DNA from: Halobacteriovoraceae bacterium
GTDB lineage: Bacteria; Bdellovibrionota; Bacteriovoracia; Bacteriovoracales; Bacteriovoracaceae
Assembly (NCBI GenBank): GCA_963719505.1
Contig: CAVRCF010000005.1
Coordinates: 992,001-1,056,000 of the forward strand
Direction: 5' to 3'
DNA length: 64,000 bases
Part shown: positions 37,411-49,022 of the stretch, in pieces
Layout of the letters: each line of letters opens with the position of its first letter
Numbering within the stretch: position 1 is the stretch's first letter
Made by a program: the position numbers and the translations under genes
Notes under the pieces: model-generated
What the model was told of the DNA's origin: nothing
What the model saw: only the letters and a program-made list of their open reading frames with translations
The model's database searches: none

Positions 37411-38726
37411 TTAAAGAAGATCTGTCGGATCCATTGTCTCGAGAGTGTTTTTTACATGCATCAAGAACTTCGAACCAACCTCACCATCAATCAATCTGTG
37501 ATCGTAAGTATGGGTCGCATACATAATATCTCTAATTGCCATGGAGTTGTCTGGCATAACTTCAACTGACTTTTTAATCGTACCAACACAGAAGATACCA
37601 ACTTGAGGCTGAAGTATGACCGGTGTCGCAGCTATGACTCCAAATGAACCATTGTTAGTGAAAGTGTATGTTCCTTCACTCAAATCATCCATTGTAAGCT
37701 TCTTATTTCGCGCTTTAATAACGAGGTCATTTAGGCTTCTGGCAAGACCTGTAAGATTTAAATTATCAGCTCCTTTAATAACAGGAACGATTAAACCATT
37801 TCCAGGAACCGCAACTGCACAACCGATATTAATATCTTTTTTGTAGACGATATTATCTCCATCAATTGATGCATTAACTGTTGGAAACTCTTTAAGAGCT
37901 TGAACTAAAGCATACATAACAAAGTGAGAGTAAGTTAAAGAGAAACCCTCTTCTTTTTTAAATTATCTTTTAAACTATTCTCTAATTTTCACAAGATTAG
38001 TCATATCGATATCATCAATTGAATTAACGTGAGGAGAAGTGAGCTTACTTGCCTGCATATTTTTAGCAATCGCTTTTCTCATATTATCCATTGGTACGAT
38101 TTCAACTTTTTCACTTGACGTGTAAGCTGGAACAGTCGAGAACTGAAATCTGATGAACCACCGGAGCTTGCACCTTTTTTCGAAGTCGATCCAGTCCCTC
38201 TGGTTTTTAGAAAATTTTCAAAGTCTTCTTTATTAACTCTTCCACCAGCTCCTGATCCGTCAATATCTTCTAAGCTCAGCTTAAGATCAACATCATTGTC
38301 ACTGCTAATTTCTTAACAAGTGGAGTATAAAATCTTCTTCTCTGCGATTATTCTGACTTCGCTGAAGGCTTTGGCTTTTGAAGTTAGCCTTATCTTTCGG
38401 ATCTTCTTCTTCATTTTTAGCAGAGTCTTCAGTTTTTTCTTCTTTTTTATCGGCTGAACCTGAGTCTGAAACTTCTGCATCCATATCTTCATCGATATAC
38501 GGCAATAAGTTTTCCAACATCAATTGTCTCACCTTCAGGATAAAGTAATTTCAACAATCTTTCCTTCAACTGGACTTGGAATTTCTGATTCAACTTTGTC
38601 AGTTGAGATCTCTAAAAGGATTTCATCAATTTCAATTTTATCTCCAACATTTTTATTCCAACTTGTGATTGTACCAGTTGTGATTGACTCACCCATTTGA
38701 GGCATAACAACTTCAACGCGTGCCAT
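37411..38726 (-). pseudogene. Dihydrolipoamide acyltransferase (2-oxoacid dehydrogenase E2), multiply frameshifted (possible sequencing error)
   Basis: Lipoyl domain MPQMGESITTG...ISTDKVESE, E3-binding GSGAGGRVNK and catalytic DHRLIDG lie in different frames. Confidence 0.85.
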
Positions 38727-38789
38727 ATTTATACTCCTAATAATTTTTATTTATATTTTACTCTATTTTATAGCGGTTCTAGATTATCA

Positions 38790-40183
<1,394 letters not shown>

Positions 40184-40315
40184 GGGTATATCCTTTATAA
40201 AAACATTTCATTAAATCAGATAAAGAATTAGAAAAAACGAGGGGTTATGTCAATCACACCATGCAACAATTAACGCGGTTGGCTTAGTCGTCTAGGCCTT
40301 CATAAGGTATCTGAG

Positions 40316-41215
40316 ATGCCTATGACAAAAAGGTTAGAAACATCCATCCCCTTGGAACCATCTGAGATTGAGATTCTACTCGCCCACTTCCCAAAAGGGA
40401 TGGTGGCTTTTGATTTAGAAATGACTGGCTTGTCCGCCACTTTCGACAAGATTATTGAAATTGCGGCAGTTAAAGTGGACGCCAATGGAGAAGTTTCGAC
40501 CTTTCACGAAATGATCAACCCGCTCATCACTATTCCAGAATATACTATTGAGTATCACGGCATCACTAATGCAATGGTCAGAGATTGCCAGACTTTAAAA
40601 CTTCCCCTTAAAGAATTTACAGCCTTTTATGGCAACCTTCCCCTTTTGGCCCATAACGCCCAATTTGACATGGGCTTTATCGTGAAAGGAAACCATGAGT
40701 TCAACTACCCATTTTCCATGAGTGATGTCTATGACAGTTGCAAGTTCTCTCGGGCCCTCTACAAGAAAGAGACTGGTGCTAAACCAGAGAATTTTAAACT
40801 ATCAAGTCTTGCAACGTTTTTTGAGTTTGAGTTTAATCACCATCAAGCCCTCGATGATGCCCTTATCTCACTTAAGGTTTTTATCAAGTGCCTTAAAAAA
40901 TTTGAAAGCTTCACAGGAAAAAGAACTCTCAGAGATCTTTGTTACCTTTTCAAAATAAACTCTTTTAAAAAGCCAATAGAATACGAACTACCAAAAAAAC
41001 TTAGACCCATTCAAGAATCTTTAAGAACTCGCTCCCAGATCAGTATAAAATACAAAGGCTCAAGCACTGGCGATGACTTTAGACAGGTCAAACCCATTGC
41101 TCTTATTCCTATGCCCCAAGGCCTTATACTTTACGCTGAGTGTCTAAAAGATAATATGAATAAACACTTCATGGTCAAAAAAATCAAAGAGTTAAAGCTA
41201 GATCCACCTGCATAA
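40316..41215 (+). CDS. DEDDh 3'-5' exonuclease with C-terminal WYL-like domain
   Basis: AFDLEMTG, AHNAQFD, HQALDDA; C-terminal ISIKY...RQVKPIAL...LYAEC...KHFMVKKI. Confidence 0.85.
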   Translation: MPMTKRLETSIPLEPSEIEILLAHFPKGMVAFDLEMTGLSATFDKIIEIAAVKVDANGEVSTFHEMINPLITIPEYTIEYHGITNAMVRDCQTLKLPLKEFTAFYGNLPLLAHNAQFDMGFIVKGNHEFNYPFSMSDVYDSCKFSRALYKKETGAKPENFKLSSLATFFEFEFNHHQALDDALISLKVFIKCLKKFESFTGKRTLRDLCYLFKINSFKKPIEYELPKKLRPIQESLRTRSQISIKYKGSSTGDDFRQVKPIALIPMPQGLILYAECLKDNMNKHFMVKKIKELKLDPPA

Positions 41216-41264
41216 TCTAGACAATGACCGACATAAAAGATAAGGTTAAAACTCGGAGACTATT

Positions 41265-41471
41265 ATGAGCGAGATGATCAAATCTATTGACTGGTTAAAA
41301 ACCACACAAATTTTTTTCTTGGGCCTAAATTTTCTTGTTTTTGCATGGATCGTTTTTCTTATTACCCATACTAAAGAGATCCCTTTTTCATCACTTTGCC
41401 TCAACTACGCAATTGTGTTGCCAATTGTTATTGCGCTTTTTCGTTTAAATAAAAAAGTTATTCAACATTAA
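41265..41471 (+). CDS. Small two-TM membrane protein
   Basis: 68 aa, GGAG upstream, stop abuts the next ATG. Confidence 0.6.
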   Translation: MSEMIKSIDWLKTTQIFFLGLNFLVFAWIVFLITHTKEIPFSSLCLNYAIVLPIVIALFRLNKKVIQH

Positions 41472-42506
41472 ATGAATTTAAATCATTGGTCGTCTGATTA
41501 TCGGGACTCTTTTAAAGACCATGCTGCTCTCGAATCATTTCTATCTTCCAAACTTGATGAAACAAAATATCCTATTTTAATTCCTCGAAACTTTGCACAG
41601 AAAATCAAAGAAAGCGGTATCGATTCACCTCTGGCAAAACAGTTTCTACCAAGCCGTGAAGAGGAAGAGGAACAAAGAGGTGGGCTCATTGATCCAATAG
41701 GTGATCAAAAATTTGAGCAGCAAGGTGGAATCATTCACCGGTATAAGAGTCGTATCCTCTACAGCCCTACAACTGTTTGCCCTATAAATTGTCGCTACTG
41801 TTTTAGAAAAAATGAACTTTTTGAAGACCTCGATACTTTTAAAGCGTCCTTAGACCTTTTAAAGAAATACTTAGAAAACCATCATGATGTTGAAGAGGTT
41901 ATTCTCACAGGAGGTGATCCCCTCATCCTATCCAATAGCAAACTGGAAAAAATATTTTCAGCGATTACTCAGTTTCCTCACGTTAGATACGTAAGAATTC
42001 ACTCTCGCACGCCTGTCATTCTTCCAAAGAGAATGGATACACAATTATATGATCTTCTGAAGCGATTCGAGAAAGTTTTGGACACCATCACTATCGCGAT
42101 TCATATTAATCATGAAAGCGAGATCTCCGAAGATTTTGAAACCCATATTAAAGCGTTTCAATCTTTTAATCTTTTATCTCAATCAGTCCTTTTAAAAGGT
42201 GTTAACGATAATAAAGAAGCTCTCGTCTCACTTTTCAAAAGAATAAATAAACTAAAAATAAAACCTTACTATTTACATCACCCGGATCTTGTCAAAGGAG
42301 CAATGCATTTCTATCTTCCTCTTCGAGAGGGAAGAGAGATTTACGGAAGCCTCAGAGATGATCTTCCCGGTTGGCTAATCCCCCACTATATAATCGATTC
42401 AAGTCGTGGCACGGGAAAAAACTTGGCCTATAATAGCGAGAATCTAAACCCAAGTGGTCAAATCCTTGATCGTTTTGGACAAGTTCATCCTCTTGATCTT
42501 AAATAA
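41472..42506 (+). CDS. KamA-family radical SAM (lysine 2,3-aminomutase/EpmB-like)
   Basis: IHRY, CPINCRYCFR, ILTGGDPL, RIHSRTP, QSVLLKGVND, PYYLH. Confidence 0.92.
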   Translation: MNLNHWSSDYRDSFKDHAALESFLSSKLDETKYPILIPRNFAQKIKESGIDSPLAKQFLPSREEEEEQRGGLIDPIGDQKFEQQGGIIHRYKSRILYSPTTVCPINCRYCFRKNELFEDLDTFKASLDLLKKYLENHHDVEEVILTGGDPLILSNSKLEKIFSAITQFPHVRYVRIHSRTPVILPKRMDTQLYDLLKRFEKVLDTITIAIHINHESEISEDFETHIKAFQSFNLLSQSVLLKGVNDNKEALVSLFKRINKLKIKPYYLHHPDLVKGAMHFYLPLREGREIYGSLRDDLPGWLIPHYIIDSSRGTGKNLAYNSENLNPSGQILDRFGQVHPLDLK

Positions 42507-42561
42507 AATTGGACTAAATCGCCTAGTGTAAAAAATCAGCACTTTAGGTTACAATTTGTAC

Positions 42562-43890
42562 ATGAGCCAAACAATTTTAATTCATGACAATCAAGATTTA
42601 AGAAAGCTTTATTCAATAAATCTTAATACATATGCTGCAACTGATATTGTTGACAGGGGAAATGCGAAAGAGACCATTGAGCTTTTGGCGATTTTACCAA
42701 CGATAAATCTCATTATTTCAAAAAATAATATTGGTAATGAAAATACCGCCGAAGATATTTATGACTATCTCCAAGATAATAATCTAGATATCCCACTAAT
42801 CGTTTTAGGCGAATGTCCGGAAATTTCTCACGACACCCTATGCTTAAAGTCACCTATTGACTGGGAGATACTGGTAAAACATGCCAGTCAACTTTTAGGA
42901 ATAACAGAAGAAGAAGTTAAGAAAAAGATTGTCCCCAACCACGTTCCCATAAAATTAACCTATTTTTACGAGATAGATCACACTCCGTGTGAAATCTTTA
43001 TTCGAATAAAGAAAGGTCCTGGCGAGTATGAATTTATCAAAAGACTCCATGCTCAGGATAACTTTGATGCCTCAGACATCGATAAATATGAAGCACAGGG
43101 ACTAACTGAACTCTATATTCCAAAAGATTATCAGCAGTACTTTGTTAATTTTGTGACAAATAATATTATAAGAAAGCTTGAACTCTCTGACATTGGAATC
43201 CAAGACAGACTTAACGCAACCTCTTCGGGCTATGAGCTCGTTCGCGACAGAGCAGATGAGATCGGTATAGACGAGAATATTCAAGAGCTCGCTCAACAAA
43301 GTATTCAGTCAATGATCAAGGCCATTCAAGAAAACACTAAACTCTCTAGCCTTCTGAAAATGCTTTTGTCCTCAAAAATTTCTTATGCCTATCAGCATGC
43401 TCACCTTGTTTGTGTTATCGGTAATTTTATTTTATCGAAACAACCTTGGTACGAACAAAAGCATCTTAACATCTTCGCATCAGCAGCTTTTTTCTCCGAT
43501 ATAACTTTAAAGTCAATCGATCAGATTAGAGTTAACTCCAATGACGATCTTGCCATGGTCGAGCTAACTGAAGAGCAAATACAAGAAGTTCATTCCCACG
43601 CAAATGATGCTGCAGAAATTATTATAGGGACCCCAATTTACAGTGAGTACCTGTATGCTGTCATCCAACAGCACCAAGGAAGCCTAAATGGTCTGGGCCT
43701 GCCAGATGATCCTAGCGAGGATATTCACCCACTAGCGAAGGTCTTTGTCATAGCTGACTACTTCGTCAAACTTATGCTTGATCCTAAAGCTCCTAAAAAT
43801 AAAAAAGATATTTTGACTATTATCTATGCTCGTTTTAACAACACGAGTTATCAGAAGATTATTAAGGTCTTAGAACTCAAAATAGACTAA
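42562..43890 (+). CDS. Receiver-like plus degenerate HD-GYP domain protein
   Basis: HAHLV, FSDI (HD replaced by SD), QQHQGSLNGLGLP, VIADYF. Confidence 0.75.
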   Translation: MSQTILIHDNQDLRKLYSINLNTYAATDIVDRGNAKETIELLAILPTINLIISKNNIGNENTAEDIYDYLQDNNLDIPLIVLGECPEISHDTLCLKSPIDWEILVKHASQLLGITEEEVKKKIVPNHVPIKLTYFYEIDHTPCEIFIRIKKGPGEYEFIKRLHAQDNFDASDIDKYEAQGLTELYIPKDYQQYFVNFVTNNIIRKLELSDIGIQDRLNATSSGYELVRDRADEIGIDENIQELAQQSIQSMIKAIQENTKLSSLLKMLLSSKISYAYQHAHLVCVIGNFILSKQPWYEQKHLNIFASAAFFSDITLKSIDQIRVNSNDDLAMVELTEEQIQEVHSHANDAAEIIIGTPIYSEYLYAVIQQHQGSLNGLGLPDDPSEDIHPLAKVFVIADYFVKLMLDPKAPKNKKDILTIIYARFNNTSYQKIIKVLELKID

Positions 43891-43899
43891 TTTCTTTGA

Positions 43900-43928
43900 T
43901 TGACATCTTTCTTCATTTTCACTATTTT
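43900..43928 (+). promoter_or_regulatory. Sigma70 promoter of tRNA-Gly
   Basis: TTGACA-17 bp-TATTTT, 14 nt upstream of the tRNA. Confidence 0.7.
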
Positions 43929-43942
43929 AATTGAACGTTTAA

Positions 43943-44018
43943 GCGGTAGTAGCTCAGCTGGTAGAGCATCTCGTTGCCATCGAGAAGGTCGTGAGTTCGA
44001 ATCTCATCTACCGCTCCA
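43943..44018 (+). tRNA. tRNA-Gly (GCC)
   Basis: GCGGTAG/CTACCGC acceptor stem, D-arm AGCTCAGCTGGTAGAGC, anticodon stem TCTCG-TTGCCAT-CGAGA, GTTCGAAT, encoded CCA; 76 nt. Confidence 0.97.
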
Positions 44019-44312
44019 TTTTATTTGATGATGTTGCTCCATTCGGGGCTTTTTTTATTCTTTCTAACTACTTACAAACATTAGAACTGTATACACTCAG
44101 TTTTTAAATCTTTCCGTTTATTTCTCCATCTTTCACTTAGTGCTTACCAAATGCTTACCAGTATTTTGAATTAGTAGCACCGTTAAGCACATGCTTGCAT
44201 TTCGAGGCACAGTTTTTTGTAAACCACTAAAACCCTTAGCTTTTGTCTGTAAGCATATGCTTGCTTAAAAGAGCTACCACCACCTCACTTAAAATTCACA
44301 AGGAGAACAACT

Positions 44313-44948
44313 ATGAAAGAAATTACAGAAGTAATTAATCAAGACTATATTTCAAATAACGCAATCATCTTAAAAAAAATGCGCCTGCTTAAAAGATTAA
44401 ATCGCCAACAAGCCGGCCTACTATTCGACTTCTCATTCAAATATATTGAAAAGCTTGAAAATGGCAGAGGTGCGATTACACCTGAAAGATTTAGAGAGTT
44501 TCAAGAAAACTATGGCTTCTCTGACCGAGAAGTTGAAGATCTTAGGTCAGGAAAACTCGAGGCTCCAACCGATGCTAATTGTATAAGAAGGACAATCTCA
44601 ACTGACAAGAGACTTGATAAAAGGTTTCGGCACAAAAGAATTACACGTGAGTGCAAAGTTTTAAAAGAGCTAAGGCTTAGAATTAATCTAGACCAGTACT
44701 CCGCATCTAGTAGGTGTGGCGTTGGAAAAAATACTATAGGCTGGATTGAAAATGGCCGAGTCACCTTAACAGATAAGAAGATCAGAACAATTGTAGAATC
44801 CTACGGCTTCACAATGGAGCTATTCAACCAACTCTTAAAAGTAAATCCCTTAAGGCATGAAATGATTGAGCAGTGTAGCGAGATCATTTCAAGCATGGAT
44901 GAGAATAAGCTTAGGGTAATAATGCCGATGCTCCAAAGTATGAACTAA
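44313..44948 (+). CDS. Transcriptional regulator with two tandem XRE/HTH_3 domains
   Basis: LKKMRLLKRLNRQQAG...IEKLENGR and LKELRLRINLDQYSAS...IGWIENGR; AAGGAG upstream. Confidence 0.85.
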   Translation: MKEITEVINQDYISNNAIILKKMRLLKRLNRQQAGLLFDFSFKYIEKLENGRGAITPERFREFQENYGFSDREVEDLRSGKLEAPTDANCIRRTISTDKRLDKRFRHKRITRECKVLKELRLRINLDQYSASSRCGVGKNTIGWIENGRVTLTDKKIRTIVESYGFTMELFNQLLKVNPLRHEMIEQCSEIISSMDENKLRVIMPMLQSMN

Positions 44949-45187: not shown

Positions 45188-46144
45188 TTATTTTCTATGA
45201 AAAGAAATAATTCTTACAGTCTCATTCCTCACAACAAATACTAATTTCCAATTTTTATTTAAATCGTCAGTAAGAATTATCTCTTGACGTGACTCATCAC
45301 CATCTTTATTTGAATCTCTTTGTATCGTGCTAGGATAAAATTTGACAAACATTTTTACGACCTCTTTAAAACTAGGTCGGTCTTTCTCTTCATTTAATAT
45401 CGATTTGTTTACATCCCATTCAAATTTAAACCTAACAAGCTCTCCCGGCATAATTTCTACCCTTTGAGACAGATATCGATTTCCATCCAATAGCTCAACT
45501 CCAGTACCAATGATTTCTAAATAACCTAGAGCATCACATATAACTTGAGGGTGAAACTGGACAGTTGGAGAATTGTCAAAATCATGTGTATAAACGGATT
45601 CGTAAATTCTATTGTCAGTATTTTCAATTTGAATAAACGGCGGAACATACGGCATTATTCTATGGGCCGATGAGTTCCTAAAATCAGTGACGTGTTCGCT
45701 CAACCAAGTATGGTGCTTATTTAAAATCTCAACTAAACCATTGGGTAAAATTTCTTTAAAATCTTTCTTTTTAAATGATATGTCGAAGTGACTTTTATGA
45801 TCAAAGTTATGTTCAAGTGCGTACACCCAAGCCAAATTATCAATCCCTCCGGAAATATTCATAAAAAAGAAGTTCAAAAGCACAGTTTGGTCAAAACGAA
45901 CTCTTCTAGAAATTTCTTTGCCATCAATTTCTAGTTGAAATATTTCATAAAATCTTTCAACACATTCTTTTAAGTATAAAGTCCTCCGTGCCAATCCATG
46001 TTGTGAGTACTTTATAGCTTCTTTAGAAATTAGTTTATTATTTTTATTGATGTTTTTTATTAAAATATCATCAAACTTTTCTATTACCTCTAAGTATTTA
46101 GTACAAATTTTATTCTGCGTTTCACGGTCATGTAAATAAGTCAT
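45188..46144 (-). CDS. HEPN-like domain fused to a C-terminal BrnT-like RNase toxin domain
   Basis: FRNSSAH (Rx4H); C-terminal FEWDVNK...SFKEVVKMF...DESR...LVFVVRNETVRIISFHRK. Confidence 0.65.
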   Translation of the reverse strand: MTYLHDRETQNKICTKYLEVIEKFDDILIKNINKNNKLISKEAIKYSQHGLARRTLYLKECVERFYEIFQLEIDGKEISRRVRFDQTVLLNFFFMNISGGIDNLAWVYALEHNFDHKSHFDISFKKKDFKEILPNGLVEILNKHHTWLSEHVTDFRNSSAHRIMPYVPPFIQIENTDNRIYESVYTHDFDNSPTVQFHPQVICDALGYLEIIGTGVELLDGNRYLSQRVEIMPGELVRFKFEWDVNKSILNEEKDRPSFKEVVKMFVKFYPSTIQRDSNKDGDESRQEIILTDDLNKNWKLVFVVRNETVRIISFHRK

Positions 46145-46155
46145 TTATAACTCCT

Positions 46156-47436
46156 TTAGTAGGATAAAAATAAGTCAGAATATTCAAGAGAATTAATTGC
46201 ATCATAGATTATCCTCCACTCACCTCCACCCATATTTCGAGGAATTGTCTCTCCACTAGTATCAACATATAACAATCTAATCGTAGCACTCACAACTTTT
46301 TCATCTTCATCTGTTCTCTGGAAGTATACTTTAACATTTACATTTGTCGCAGCTGATGCTTGATCCTCAACACTTTCAATCTTATAATAATTAATAGTCT
46401 TACTTTTTAATTTTGCTCTAAGTTCTCCAGCGACTTTACTTATTTCCAATTTTTCTGAGCTAAAAGCACTTTTTGTAAGACTCACTGCCTTTCCATAGTT
46501 GGCAGTGATTAAGTAATCTAAATACAAACCACAAGTATACTCAGGAGTACCAATCTCTAACTTGGAACTGTCTATAGATTTAATCAGCTTTCTAGGTTTC
46601 CACTCTTTCATTGCACTCTTCTGCTGTTGTGTTTTGTATATTTGATTAATTAAGGTTTCCAAGGAATATTTCTCTTCAATTTCTGGCTCATTATTAAGAC
46701 TATGAGCCCAGTCACCTACAGCAAAAAGTAAACTCCAACACTTTGCTGCTAAGATTTTATTATCGTAACCTAGGTCTCGGCCATGTAATATTCCATGCCG
46801 ATAAGGCAAATATAAAGGATCGGCATTTGTCTTTTTTCTATTTTTAGTGAGTATCTTCTTTAAAGCTTTAAGGCCTTTCTCATGTCCCGAAATTGAATCA
46901 TAGGAAGTCACATTAGATGAATCTGTATAGAGACCATTATTAGAAAGATCTGCCACCATTGCATCCGTCAAGCTTAGTAAAACTAAAACAACGGAGTAGT
47001 ATCGACCCTCCAAATAATCTTTTAATATCTTATCAATAAGATTCATCCGAACCATATAACTCGGAATTGATTTCAAACGAGTTTTCAGAAATGTAATTTG
47101 TTCTTCTGTATAAAAATTTACTAATATATTTTCAGCTTCGTCTATATTTGATGAGTCTGCCTTATCAACAGCAGCTTTCATAGTCTCATGGTTTAATGAT
47201 TCATAGGCGATCCAACCTAGCTTAACAAAATGGTCATTAAATCGATCTGGCATTTGGATAAGCTCTTTAGCCAGTTTAAATTGTTTGGGTGCCTCTTTTG
47301 AAAGTCTTTCAATTAACTCTGCTTTAAATCCTAATTTACCTAATGCTTTCGCCCCCCAAATAAAGGGTTTGAGAATCTTCATTTGTTCTTCTAATTTTTT
47401 TAAAGATATATTCTCACTAATTTTTATTTCTTTCAT
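46156..47436 (-). CDS. HEPN-like domain protein
   Basis: Helical N-terminus, YRHGILHG (Rx4H) motif, extra C-terminal alpha/beta domain. Confidence 0.6.
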   Translation of the reverse strand: MKEIKISENISLKKLEEQMKILKPFIWGAKALGKLGFKAELIERLSKEAPKQFKLAKELIQMPDRFNDHFVKLGWIAYESLNHETMKAAVDKADSSNIDEAENILVNFYTEEQITFLKTRLKSIPSYMVRMNLIDKILKDYLEGRYYSVVLVLLSLTDAMVADLSNNGLYTDSSNVTSYDSISGHEKGLKALKKILTKNRKKTNADPLYLPYRHGILHGRDLGYDNKILAAKCWSLLFAVGDWAHSLNNEPEIEEKYSLETLINQIYKTQQQKSAMKEWKPRKLIKSIDSSKLEIGTPEYTCGLYLDYLITANYGKAVSLTKSAFSSEKLEISKVAGELRAKLKSKTINYYKIESVEDQASAATNVNVKVYFQRTDEDEKVVSATIRLLYVDTSGETIPRNMGGGEWRIIYDAINSLEYSDLFLSY

Positions 47437-47621
47437 AAATAATCCTTAATACTACTACGAATGATAGCTTCTCAAAGCATCTTTGGAAAGGACTCAAGGT
47501 AATGTTGTTAGCAAGTCAAGCCGTAAGCATAAAAGAATCACAACCATAAAGTGTTAAAGCTCCATTATTCAATCTTATTTTTTTGAATATTCTTAAGTGT
47601 TACAGGTCTATCTTTTAAAAA

Positions 47622-48356
47622 TCAACTTAGCGTAGATCGTTGGTCATCATTTTTTGCTAAATCTCTTAGAAGAAAATAAGTAACTCTATTCATGAAGTAT
47701 GCATTTGCAGGAAATGTTAAGCTGAATTGAACTTGTTTTTTCTTTAGTAAATCTGAATGAATTGTATATTTCTGAGCTAAATCAAAAACGATGAAGTCAT
47801 CATCTTCCTCATCTGTCATTCCCTGAAGTTCAGAAGGAGGTAGACTTAGTAATCTTGCTTTTTTATTTTGAAAAATCCCTGCTCTAGGATTAGGAGGACG
47901 AACACCTAGTAGCGATAAACTTTCGTCTTTTATTAGCTCTTCATATCTATACCCTGGGATAATGACTGAAAAAGCTTCTTGCTCTACAACACAGGTTTGG
48001 CTTAAAACAATCCAAAATGAAGTCATTAAACCAGATGCCTCCGTCGGAAAATCAGTATCTGATCTAAAAACATCCCCCTGCCTTACAAACTCAACAGGCC
48101 TAGAATACAAGTTTTCAGAAGATAACAACAATGATCTTTTTGTATGTTCTCCTAGTACTGACTCTATTTTAAAATTTCCGGTTGTAGGAGGATATTTTGG
48201 AATATAATCACGAAAAAAAATACCTGTTTTTGAGAAATATGACCTATTAAGATCAAAATATGATGCATTAAAAGGGAATGACTCTAATTCATTGTGGGTT
48301 ATTAAGTAGTCGTGATATTCGTCTAAGTCAGTAAACGTCCAGCTTGTATGGGTCAT
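47622..48356 (-). CDS. Hypothetical protein, PemK/MazF-like motif pattern
   Basis: VRQGDVF...WIVLSQTC...VIIP...LLSLP...VFDL. Confidence 0.5.
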   Translation of the reverse strand: MTHTSWTFTDLDEYHDYLITHNELESFPFNASYFDLNRSYFSKTGIFFRDYIPKYPPTTGNFKIESVLGEHTKRSLLLSSENLYSRPVEFVRQGDVFRSDTDFPTEASGLMTSFWIVLSQTCVVEQEAFSVIIPGYRYEELIKDESLSLLGVRPPNPRAGIFQNKKARLLSLPPSELQGMTDEEDDDFIVFDLAQKYTIHSDLLKKKQVQFSLTFPANAYFMNRVTYFLLRDLAKNDDQRSTLS

Positions 48357-48378
48357 ATTATATTAAGGCCTTAATTTT

Positions 48379-48825
48379 TTATTTAAATTTTGATACAACC
48401 GTCTTTATTACTGTAGATAATAATTTATTTTCAGGATTATCAACAATATGATCCAGTAGTGACAGATCTCCTTCATCACCAACAGGTTCATTTAATACAT
48501 TCAAGATGTCACCATCGTTAATACCCTGCGAATAAATCTCCTCAACACAGCGATATAAACATTGAAGCCTACGAAATTTTGAAGGTACACTTGTTTGAGT
48601 AATCGTATATGCAGTCCAATTAGTTAAGGTTCTTTCTGACACCCCCAAAAGTGCAGCGATCATAGTTACACGAACATTAAGTCGTTTTTCCAATATTGCA
48701 ATTGCATCACTTCCTGTGACTTCAAAGTACTGATCTTCTTGCTCTAAATCTCTTGCTGCACCCATGACACTTCCTTGTATAGCAGGACTCTTTTTTACTA
48801 GTTCTGTGTGTTGTCCCATATTCAT
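48379..48825 (-). CDS. Xre/MbcA/ParS-like antitoxin (HTH plus C-terminal toxin-binding-like region)
   Basis: IAALLGVSERTLTNW, RRLQCLY, VLNEP...SLLDHI; start moved to ATG 48825 behind AAGGAG. Confidence 0.6.
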   Translation of the reverse strand: MNMGQHTELVKKSPAIQGSVMGAARDLEQEDQYFEVTGSDAIAILEKRLNVRVTMIAALLGVSERTLTNWTAYTITQTSVPSKFRRLQCLYRCVEEIYSQGINDGDILNVLNEPVGDEGDLSLLDHIVDNPENKLLSTVIKTVVSKFK

Positions 48826-49022
48826 TTTATACTCCTTAGTAGTATCGGTACATCTAGGCATAATTTTACCACTTTTTCCGAAAAAAATCACCTTATTTTC
48901 CGAAAAACACATCATTTATTCATGCTGTCAGTACAAAACAAACATAAACTACTGATTTCTCGTGATCTTATCCGCCAGAACTATATCCAAAGCTAAAACC
49001 ACCTGATCCTTCACCACCTACG

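Follow-up and report, generated by a model that had tools for sequence, protein, structure and literature searches.

A probable MazF/CcdB-fold toxin with a helix-turn-helix partner and a pair of predicted HEPN-type genes, side by side at a tRNA-Gly gene of a Halobacteriovoraceae bacterium

Four co-oriented minus-strand genes, designated D, C, B and A in the direction of transcription, lie beside a tRNA-Gly gene in the stretch of DNA analyzed here (the window), which comprises 64,000 nucleotides of Halobacteriovoraceae bacterium (GenBank assembly GCA_963719505.1, contig CAVRCF010000005.1, positions 992,001 to 1,056,000). An initial annotation of the letters had read the four genes as a single multi-effector defence module, with up to four RNase domains and one antitoxin, at the edge of a putative island. 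The results described below favor a different arrangement, in which the genes are probably two separate two-gene modules, D–C and B–A, independently acquired and placed side by side at tRNA-Gly, because D–C recurs without B–A, B–A recurs without D–C, and B is elsewhere a solo gene. As judged from structural models, D–C probably encodes a new, long form of toxin with the MazF/CcdB fold, together with a helix-turn-helix (HTH) antitoxin, and the sequences of the B family make it a reasonable candidate for single-gene defence.

The fold of C and its pairing with D

The protein encoded by C is predicted to have the MazF/CcdB fold. Its AlphaFold2 (AF2) model, which was built with a 55-sequence alignment (predicted local distance difference test score, pLDDT, 90.9; predicted template modelling score, pTM, 0.89), was compared by VIA-align with 48,161 representative chains, and the top match is S. 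aureus MazF (4mzm_A; Z 11.6, root-mean-square deviation (rmsd) 2.6, 112/115 residues, model residues 89-233). The top 12 chains are all MazF, Kid, CcdB or CptN, after which Z falls from 6.7 to 4.3. In a Foldseek search of the PDB, all rows listed through rank 49 are MazF/PemK-type toxins or CcdB, with 4of1_A as the best match (E 7.4e-4, TM 0.71 on target).

Compared with the toxins of MazE-MazF, PemI-PemK (Kis-Kid) and CcdA-CcdB, residues ~88-234 of the C model cover almost the full length of the MazF, Kid or CcdB chain in the superposition (Z 9.2-11.6), and the SH3-like barrel of MazF and CcdB is found in the model over the whole toxin chain. C differs from these toxins in size, having 244 residues whereas the top 11 aligned chains have 94-118, and in carrying, ahead of the MazF/CcdB-fold core, an N-terminal extension of ~87 residues that contributes to the predicted interface with D. 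It differs from MazF, PemK and CcdB in sequence as well, since it matches none of their sequence models: the Pfam profiles PemK_toxin and CcdB have no match in C at E ≤ 1 and none in 25 members of its family at E ≤ 0.1, and a PDB sequence search with C alone gave 0 matches at E ≤ 1. The description of C as MazF-like therefore holds at the level of the fold and not at that of the sequence family.

The C family is rare. A word-index search returned two relatives, and a HMMER profile made from six sequences recovered, from 1.84 billion proteins, 90 representatives at E ≤ 1e-3, about 45 of which are full length (229-254 aa); no relative was found on viral contigs and no match on plasmids. In the 55-sequence alignment, Q93, D95, C122 and P134 are invariant (55/55) and N164, P173 and R231 are nearly so, which places three of the four invariant residues in the motifs QGD (residues 93-95) and SQTC (residues 119-122). 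These invariant residues (Gln, Asp, Cys and Pro) differ from those that we take to be the catalytic residues of MazF.

The gene upstream of C encodes the HTH protein D, and the pairing of the two genes is conserved. Among 401 genomes of the phylum, which were searched in six frames, C has matches in 6, including its own; one of these (G295, a 345-aa ORF (open reading frame) matching over residues 145-203 only) was excluded as a homologue, leaving four other true carriers. Homologues of D are present in 9 of the 401, again including its own, and in 4/4 of the other C-carrying genomes (G277, G360, G112 and G193) a D homologue lies directly upstream of C on the same strand, at a spacing that ranges from a 15-bp gap to an overlap of at most 35 bp, as counted from longest-ORF starts.

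Binding of D to C is supported by complex prediction. Three runs gave ipSAE interface scores of 0.85, 0.83 and 0.82, the best control reaching 0.01, and in the benchmark the mark used for a complex was reached by 116/157 solved complexes and by 2/215 mismatched pairs. The contacts agree between runs to at least 94%, and the partner pLDDT is at least 77. The predicted interface of D on C adjoins or includes the conserved residues G69, L78, N164 and P173. Because D is not MazE-like, it is less likely that the score stems from recall of solved MazEF complexes. A conserved adjacent gene of the antitoxin type, whose product is predicted to bind the toxin, is thus found next to C, and the earlier call of D as an HTH antitoxin fits both its position in 4/4 genomes and its predicted binding to C.

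The layout of D–C is that of MazEF and CcdAB, with a two-gene operon, a small DNA-binding-type protein encoded first and a predicted complex of the two products. The partner itself is of another type, D being an HTH protein and not an AbrB-type or ribbon-helix-helix antitoxin. The partners listed in the consulted part of a survey of the MazF family are of the AbrB, CopG, DUF3018, DUF104, DUF2281 and RelB types, together with five archaeal winged-HTH cases (PMC3879964).

Proteins related to D were also observed in other surroundings. A D-like HTH protein at L097:277-846 (genome G104) ends in a tail of the TacA1 type, scored at 21.9 bits with a cut-off of 21; another, at L099:825-1905 (G400), precedes a gene for a 211-aa GNAT protein. 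Because of this tail and this neighbor, the HTH module of D seems to serve as an antitoxin chassis elsewhere, apparently paired with acetyltransferase toxins. In G193, a 399-aa ORF (L093:1905-3104) directly follows the D–C pair, with an overlap at the end of the C homologue. Its C-terminal part is a GNAT acetyltransferase domain, a faint match to HEPN_AbiU2 (E 0.02) surrounds RAHRDTVVAH, and the ORF may be a third gene of that locus.

With the gene order, the conservation, the fold of C, its pairing with D and the predicted interface computed here, we infer that D–C would act as a type II toxin-antitoxin-like operon. D would bind C across its conserved surface and, by analogy with other type II antitoxins, would probably also repress its own operon; were D lost or degraded, free C would be expected to stop growth. 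C would most likely cleave RNA as MazF does and, less likely, would act on another target as CcdB does.

That C is a toxin other than an RNase, with a CcdB-like target such as gyrase or with different chemistry via its invariant Cys, is a possibility that we place on the unlikely side. CcdB (1vub_A) scores Z 9.6 against the model, near the scores of the MazF chains, the PemK/MazF models do not match the sequence of C, and the residues that stand out in the family (Gln93, Asp95, Cys122 and Pro134, with Asn164, Pro173 and Arg231 nearly invariant) differ from those taken to be catalytic in MazF; against this, 11 of the 12 top VIA-align chains and most Foldseek rows are MazF/Kid/CptN-type RNases, and the shared fold decides neither way. 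It is quite improbable that D–C is no toxin-antitoxin pair at all, with D as a transcription factor of the usual kind and with C as a partner or co-regulator, non-toxic in spite of its MazF/CcdB barrel. Such a reading would accommodate the lack of a family-level antitoxin match in D, the predicted nature of the toxicity of C and the occurrence of SH3-like barrels in non-toxic proteins, which appear in the lower VIA-align rows. The match to C spans nearly the whole MazF chain at Z 11.6, however, whereas generic barrels reach at most 4.3, and the antitoxin-first, overlapping two-gene layout, the pairing of D-like proteins with TacA/GNAT-type toxin modules elsewhere and the sporadic, accessory distribution (5/401 genomes) all argue for a toxin and its antitoxin. 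The reading of D–C as a MazF/CcdB-fold toxin with an HTH antitoxin also has points against it besides the differing invariant residues: C has no Pfam, NCBIfam or PADLOC match, and the HTH of D is weak, its scores (HTH_23 at E 0.015 over residues 81-100 of the 178-aa form, with HTH_29 weak too) lying under the Pfam thresholds and its alignment having just 8 rows. A PDB sequence search with D alone gave 0 matches at E ≤ 1.

The predicted HEPN-type proteins B and A

Protein B is predicted to combine a helical domain that carries an Rx4H motif with an NTF2-like domain. In its AF2 model (pLDDT 89), the N-terminal part is all-helical and is followed by a C-terminal domain, the closest match to which is YchJ (9vxg_A; Z 12.3, rmsd 2.5, 107 residues aligned; VIA-align). 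Many NTF2, SnoaL and SEC-C-associated chains match this C-terminal domain at Z 8-12, and Foldseek returned limonene epoxide hydrolase and the N-domain of PBP5 for B.

The motif of the N-terminal domain, RHGILH, is found at residues 213-218. A bare Rx4H often arises by chance (in 19% of 2000 shuffles of B and 52% of 2000 of A), and what carries weight is its conservation: P211, R213, G215, H218 and G219 (PYRHGILHG) are invariant in 54/54 aligned sequences of the B family, so that the N-terminal domain has a conserved motif of the Rx4-6H type. We consider it fairly likely that this domain is HEPN-like. In BFVD (Foldseek), B finds as its top match a phage protein of the DUF4209 type (E 1.6e-5, 277 columns, TMt 0.55), and in the consulted part of the HEPN survey of Anantharaman et al. 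(2013, PMC3710099) DUF4209 overlaps the C6orf70 HEPN family. The nearest ESM Atlas clusters to B(1-280) are unnamed, and DUF4209 leads among the names with a 19% share and a score of 0.77, below 0.9.

Several results weigh against a HEPN assignment of B. The DUF4209 match joins two predicted structures at an rmsd of 13.3, and the PDB fold searches, which used the whole B model, gave lists filled by the NTF2-like domain and so are silent on the N-terminal domain. No Pfam family was matched by any of the 54 members, with no HEPN-clan or DUF4209 match at E ≤ 0.1, and hhalign of the N-terminal domain against the A family and single HEPN neighbors gave probabilities of at most 0.4%. When the N-terminal domains of both B and A were aligned by hhalign with single HEPN_MAE_28990, HEPN_Cthe2314 and DUF5677 neighbors, the probability was at most 1.3%; in PDB sequence searches, B alone gave 0 matches at E ≤ 1 and the B profile two chance-level matches only.

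With solo HEPN proteins of the abortive infection (Abi) type and with the C6orf70/DUF4209 HEPN proteins, as described in the consulted part of that survey, B shares an invariant Rx4H in a helical domain. It is like them, too, in its best viral-structure match, a DUF4209 protein, and in being a single gene beside restriction-modification, transposase, integrase, TIR, Abi and other HEPN genes. It is unlike them in the absence of HEPN or DUF4209 Pfam matches from its 54 members and in the addition of the C-terminal NTF2-like domain. No related work that combines HEPN and NTF2 was found in the literature, as judged on titles and abstract openings.

The B family is widespread and nameless. A word-index search returned 289 relatives at E ≤ 1e-3, among them bacterial and archaeal proteins that are called just 'hypothetical' or 'zinc chelation protein SecC', and 338 stretches were confirmed in species-representative genomes; within its own taxonomic family, a search of 100 further genomes, two of the same genus included, gave no B. 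Five viral or proviral contigs of IMG/VR (L107-L111) encode B-family proteins with 30-35% identity. Among the long relatives (P0009-P0013 and P0017; 628-666 aa), none of the six has a Pfam match, and P0009 (665 aa), the one long form aligned, has the N-terminal domain twice in tandem, with the motif in each copy, followed by a single NTF2-like domain. Such a tandem duplication would be expected if the domain works as a dimer.

The neighborhoods of B were sampled at 80 loci in other species, 77 of which have an intact B ORF, with ~5 kb around each and 3136 ORFs in total. No relative of A, C or D was found among these ORFs by BLAST at E ≤ 0.01, and the family hidden Markov models (HMMs) at E ≤ 1 found no A, C or D, bar one D match at E 0.026. 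The immediate neighbors vary. Of 147 scanned, 57 had a Pfam match at E ≤ 1e-3, and these include 8 of the transposase, IstB or integrase types and 16 of the restriction, nuclease, HEPN, TIR, Abi, Fic, toxin-antitoxin or immunity types; the counts were made without a baseline and describe a pattern, no enrichment being claimed. On these sequences, B appears to belong to a nameless family of wide distribution, whose members usually stand alone in surroundings of mobile-element and defence-type genes. DUF5677 is the sole recurrent annotated neighbor type, next to B in 4/77 loci (L013, L014, L049 and L072) and twice within 30 bp. A recurrent partner of B was also sought by all-against-all BLAST of the 147 immediate neighbors, which gave clusters of 2-3 only and hence no partner.

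Protein A is split in two by the six-frame HMMER search of the phylum, in which its N-terminal domain and its tail match separate stand-alone ORFs. Residues 1-218 match ORFs of 213-249 aa in G040, G231, G266 and G116 (27-38% identity) and, weakly, in G172. The motif of A, RNSSAH at residues 156-161, has the form R[ND]xxAH, which is kept in 5/6 aligned sequences of the N-domain family. An ORF of G219 is matched by the HMM of this family at 45.8 bits (conditional E 2.6e-16), in an alignment that brings together the motifs DNLA and FRxxxxHR; it is the only ORF in 301 phylum genomes to pass the cut-off of HEPN_Cthe2314 (PF18730), with 27.4 bits. The N-terminal domain thus combines a conserved Rx4H with a profile link to a bona fide PF18730 member, and it is predicted to be a Cthe_2314-type HEPN domain. 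A itself has no match to PF18730 at E ≤ 1 and does not reach its gathering score; its relative L085 scores 25.7 bits against the cut-off of 27.1. The nearest ESM Atlas clusters to A(1-235) are unnamed, with HEPN_Cthe2314 in the lead (19% share, score 0.87, below 0.9). Weighing against the prediction, the N-terminal part has no Pfam, NCBIfam or PADLOC match. A word-index search with A returned A alone, its relatives emerging in the six-frame phylum search only, and the PDB sequence search gave 0 matches at E ≤ 1.

Like Cthe_2314-like HEPN proteins, the N-domain family of A keeps R[ND]xxAH; A departs from them in the missing PF18730 match and in the fusion of the domain to a BrnT-like tail. In the consulted part of the 2013 HEPN survey, the column for architecture and context of the Cthe_2314 family reads 'None detected' (PMC3710099). 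In the L082 locus (L082:1053-2528, G040), the stand-alone relative of the HEPN domain of A (213 aa) is flanked by an ORF of 148 aa and an overlapping one of 128 aa, both of them free of Pfam matches, and the locus may be a three-gene operon.

The tail of A resembles the toxin BrnT. Within the whole protein, residues 243-315 match Pfam BrnT_toxin (PF04365) at E 2.8e-6 with 28.0 bits, and the tail alone gives 31.9 bits (E 1.7e-7; profile positions 1-70 of 77) and the six-frame search 31 bits, all below the gathering score of 34.5 bits. In the phylum, residues ~230-317 match stand-alone ORFs of 93-151 aa in 20/401 genomes. No significant match came from a PDB search with only the tail; a chain of 94 aa called 'toxin' (7vd7_A) stood at E 1.1. 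The last 82 residues of A, which cover the same profile positions, share with a canonical BrnT a start of the form FEWD..NKS..N and an end of the form RIIS.

The residues needed for BrnT activity are incompletely present. In the BrnT-like toxin Aave_1720, substitution of Lys17, His18, Phe29 and Glu86 affected toxicity or RNase activity, and three of the four residues had been reported earlier for BrnT itself, according to the consulted part of PMC10714953. The tail was aligned by eye with the canonical BrnT of L087, which scores 104 bits and whose gene precedes one for BrnA; A retains the Lys and the Phe, has Asp where that toxin has His, and ends ahead of the conserved Glu position, so that two of the four residues are missing. 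Because it scores below threshold, has Asp in place of His and ends before the Glu, the tail is not counted as an active RNase domain; on its sequence it is probably not one, and the BrnT part looks disabled. There is also no BrnA near A: the sole PF14384 match in the genome (six-frame search, E ≤ 0.1) is at C5:797226-797411, ~240 kb off. The latter belongs to the single canonical BrnT-BrnA pair of the genome (C5:796966-797411; 90.5 and 41.2 bits), and this BrnA might conceivably act on the tail of A in trans.

The domain further differs from BrnT in being the tail of a larger protein, whereas BrnT is a free protein of ~95 aa. In CoCoNuT systems, BrnT-like genes of the RelE family, with incompletely conserved toxicity residues, are found beside HEPN RNase systems (PMC11090510, in the part consulted); there the BrnT-like gene is separate and upstream, beside McrBC-type systems, and here it is fused to HEPN, with no McrBC-type genes. 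BrnT or DUF497 is mentioned 0 times in the HEPN survey (PMC3710099), and a HEPN-BrnT fusion was not found in the consulted part of the literature on HEPN and BrnT.

The B–A module would then be a cassette of two predicted HEPN-type RNases. The NTF2-like domain of B may act as a sensor or regulator of the HEPN-like Rx4H domain, and A would be a Cthe_2314-type HEPN protein with an acquired BrnT-like tail that has since degenerated and may, instead of catalysis, contribute to the binding of RNA or ribosomes. A putative anti-phage or island-stabilizing role is conceivable for either module.

Two modules or one system

The two pairs recur apart from one another. In the four other genomes with D–C, no B or A lies within ~1.5 kb of the pair, and no B was found in the loci of the A-domain homologues or of the C and D homologues, each taken with ~1.5 kb of flank. 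The B–A pair was found on a metagenome contig (L104, 6348 bp), which encodes a B homologue of 83% identity and, after an identical 11 bp, an A homologue of which 74 residues precede the contig end, 67 of them identical (91%). Upstream of B, this contig has two tyrosine recombinases (integrases) and an AlpA-like gene and no C or D.

It is very improbable that the four genes work together as a single multi-effector abortive-infection system in which C, B and A are controlled by D, the sole antitoxin or regulator. In favor of such a system, the genes are co-oriented and tightly spaced, with no terminator-like site between the pairs, all four have toxin or antitoxin-type features, and no catalogued system matches them. 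It conflicts with the recurrence of D–C in four genomes without B or A nearby, with the integrases that precede B–A in L104 in place of C and D, with the 80 B loci that lack a relative of A, C or D, and with the spacer between the pairs, which holds a promoter-like site and B's own ribosome-binding site; the former is one sigma-70-like site on the minus strand (47489-47461, 9/12 matches), and the latter an AAGGA box ahead of B's ATG.

It is unlikely, though less so, that B–A is itself a toxin-antitoxin-like pair, in which B neutralizes or gates the HEPN-BrnT protein A, for example in a mixed HEPN dimer. The upstream position of B is one usual for antitoxins, L104 has the same order and the same 11-bp spacing, its B being 83% and its A fragment 91% identical, and A has neither a BrnA nor another small partner nearby, the sole BrnA match of the genome being the distant one. 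B is, however, a solo gene with no A-like neighbor in 77 other loci, stand-alone relatives of the N-terminal domain of A occur without B, and B itself keeps an invariant Rx4H of the catalytic type. Some points also weigh against the preferred reading of two separately acquired modules. The identical B–A spacing in L104 argues for coupling of these two genes and not for mere adjacency, although that copy is close (83-91% identity), and its spacing may reflect recent common descent only. No terminator-like site was found in the 185-bp spacer, so all four genes could be co-transcribed, and transcription may read through from D–C. The host genome is 83.5% complete.

Several parts of the initial annotation survive this revision. 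All of the motifs that it listed (two Rx4H, QGD, SQxC, the BrnT-like tail and the HTH) are present, the Rx4H motifs on which it based HEPN calls for B and A are conserved (54/54 and 5/6), with the HEPN type itself predicted, and the proposed HEPN-BrnT fusion has its Pfam BrnT_toxin match, though a sub-threshold one. Its impression that the genes match no catalogued system agrees with PADLOC-DB v2.0.0, in which the four ORFs have no convincing match and none below E 0.007 (B with MkoB at E 0.0073, D with mad1 at E 0.013). What did not hold is the single module with four RNase domains and one antitoxin, given that D–C and B–A recur separately, that the 80 B loci lack A, C and D and that the tail of A is likely inactive. 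The motif-level calls were right, yet adjacency at an island edge did not make a system.

Taken together, and tentatively, the two modules can be read as follows. C would be a rare new branch of the MazF/CcdB fold, with an HTH antitoxin and with a target or chemistry unlike both MazF and CcdB, and B would be an unannotated single-gene HEPN-NTF2 defence protein of the Abi type, of a family present in at least 338 species-representative genomes. As part of the same tentative reading, D would cover and neutralize the surface of C formed by the invariant Gln-x-Asp, Cys and Pro, and the NTF2-like domain of B would sense a small molecule or phage cue and gate the RNase. If D–C proves toxic and neutralizable, it would add to the MazF/CcdB toxins a structurally distinct long form with an HTH antitoxin and different invariant residues, and would shed light on the re-use of a single fold against various targets. 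The greater interest lies in the B family, which is found in bacteria, archaea and a few viral contigs, is nameless and has an invariant HEPN-type motif and mobile or defence-type surroundings; because it is widespread, has the invariant motif and lies among such neighbors, it is a cheap and well-defined candidate for a single-gene test of phage defence. In A, a toxin domain would have been captured as a tail and apparently disabled.

Locus layout and genomic setting

The ORF list confirms the layout described earlier for the four genes, with successive gaps of 22 bp (D–C), 185 bp (C–B) and 11 bp (B–A); the coordinates are given in Table 1. The longest start of D would give a protein of 178 aa (48379-48915) and the ATG at 48825 one of 148 aa, and the latter is the most likely start because an AAGGAG box lies 7 nt 5' of it.

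Table 1. Positions of the four genes, their domains and neighboring features in the window
Feature	Position	Strand	Remarks
D	48379-48825	-	148-aa HTH protein; candidate antitoxin and repressor of C
C	47622-48356	-	244 aa; predicted MazF/CcdB-fold core, ~residues 88-234; candidate toxin
Spacer between the D–C and B–A pairs	47437-47621	-	185 bp
B (whole ORF)	46156-47436	-	426 aa
B N-terminal helical domain, residues 1-279	46600-47436	-	probably HEPN-like; invariant PYRHGILHG; R213-H218 codons at 46783-46800
B C-terminal NTF2-like domain, residues ~280-422, and stop codon	46156-46599	-	
A (whole ORF)	45188-46144	-	318 aa
A N-terminal domain, residues 1-218	45491-46144	-	predicted Cthe_2314-type HEPN; R156-H161 (RNSSAH) codons at 45662-45679
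A C-terminal BrnT-like tail, residues 237-318, and stop codon	45188-45436	-	probably degenerate
tRNA-Gly(GCC)	43943-44018	+	ARAGORN; end of synteny with one same-genus genome
Double Xre-type HTH gene	44313-44948	+	convergent with A; context, not assigned to either module

The four genes appear, from sequence comparison, to sit in a strain-specific region beside tRNA-Gly that starts at or just past the tRNA, since synteny with the same-genus genomes ends at 44022 or 44948: G430 aligns to 38000-44022 of the window with nothing further there, and G408 aligns up to 44948. The region is absent from both genomes, in agreement with the island-edge position proposed at the outset. No direct repeat of the tRNA 3' end was found: even when up to 3 mismatches were tolerated, its 26-mer had a single occurrence in the genome.

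The Xre-type gene next to the tRNA matches Pfam HTH_31 (2.2e-11) and HTH_3 (5.9e-11) in two stretches. It is found at the same place in G408, with 69% nucleotide identity, and not in G430, and it may be an island regulator or a backbone gene. On the island side, the integrase-family match closest to tRNA-Gly is a phage-integrase-family stretch at C5:1088313-1088810, ~52 kb from the tRNA gene and ~32 kb past the end of the window. It is interrupted by four in-frame stops and may be a decayed integrase at the far side of the island.

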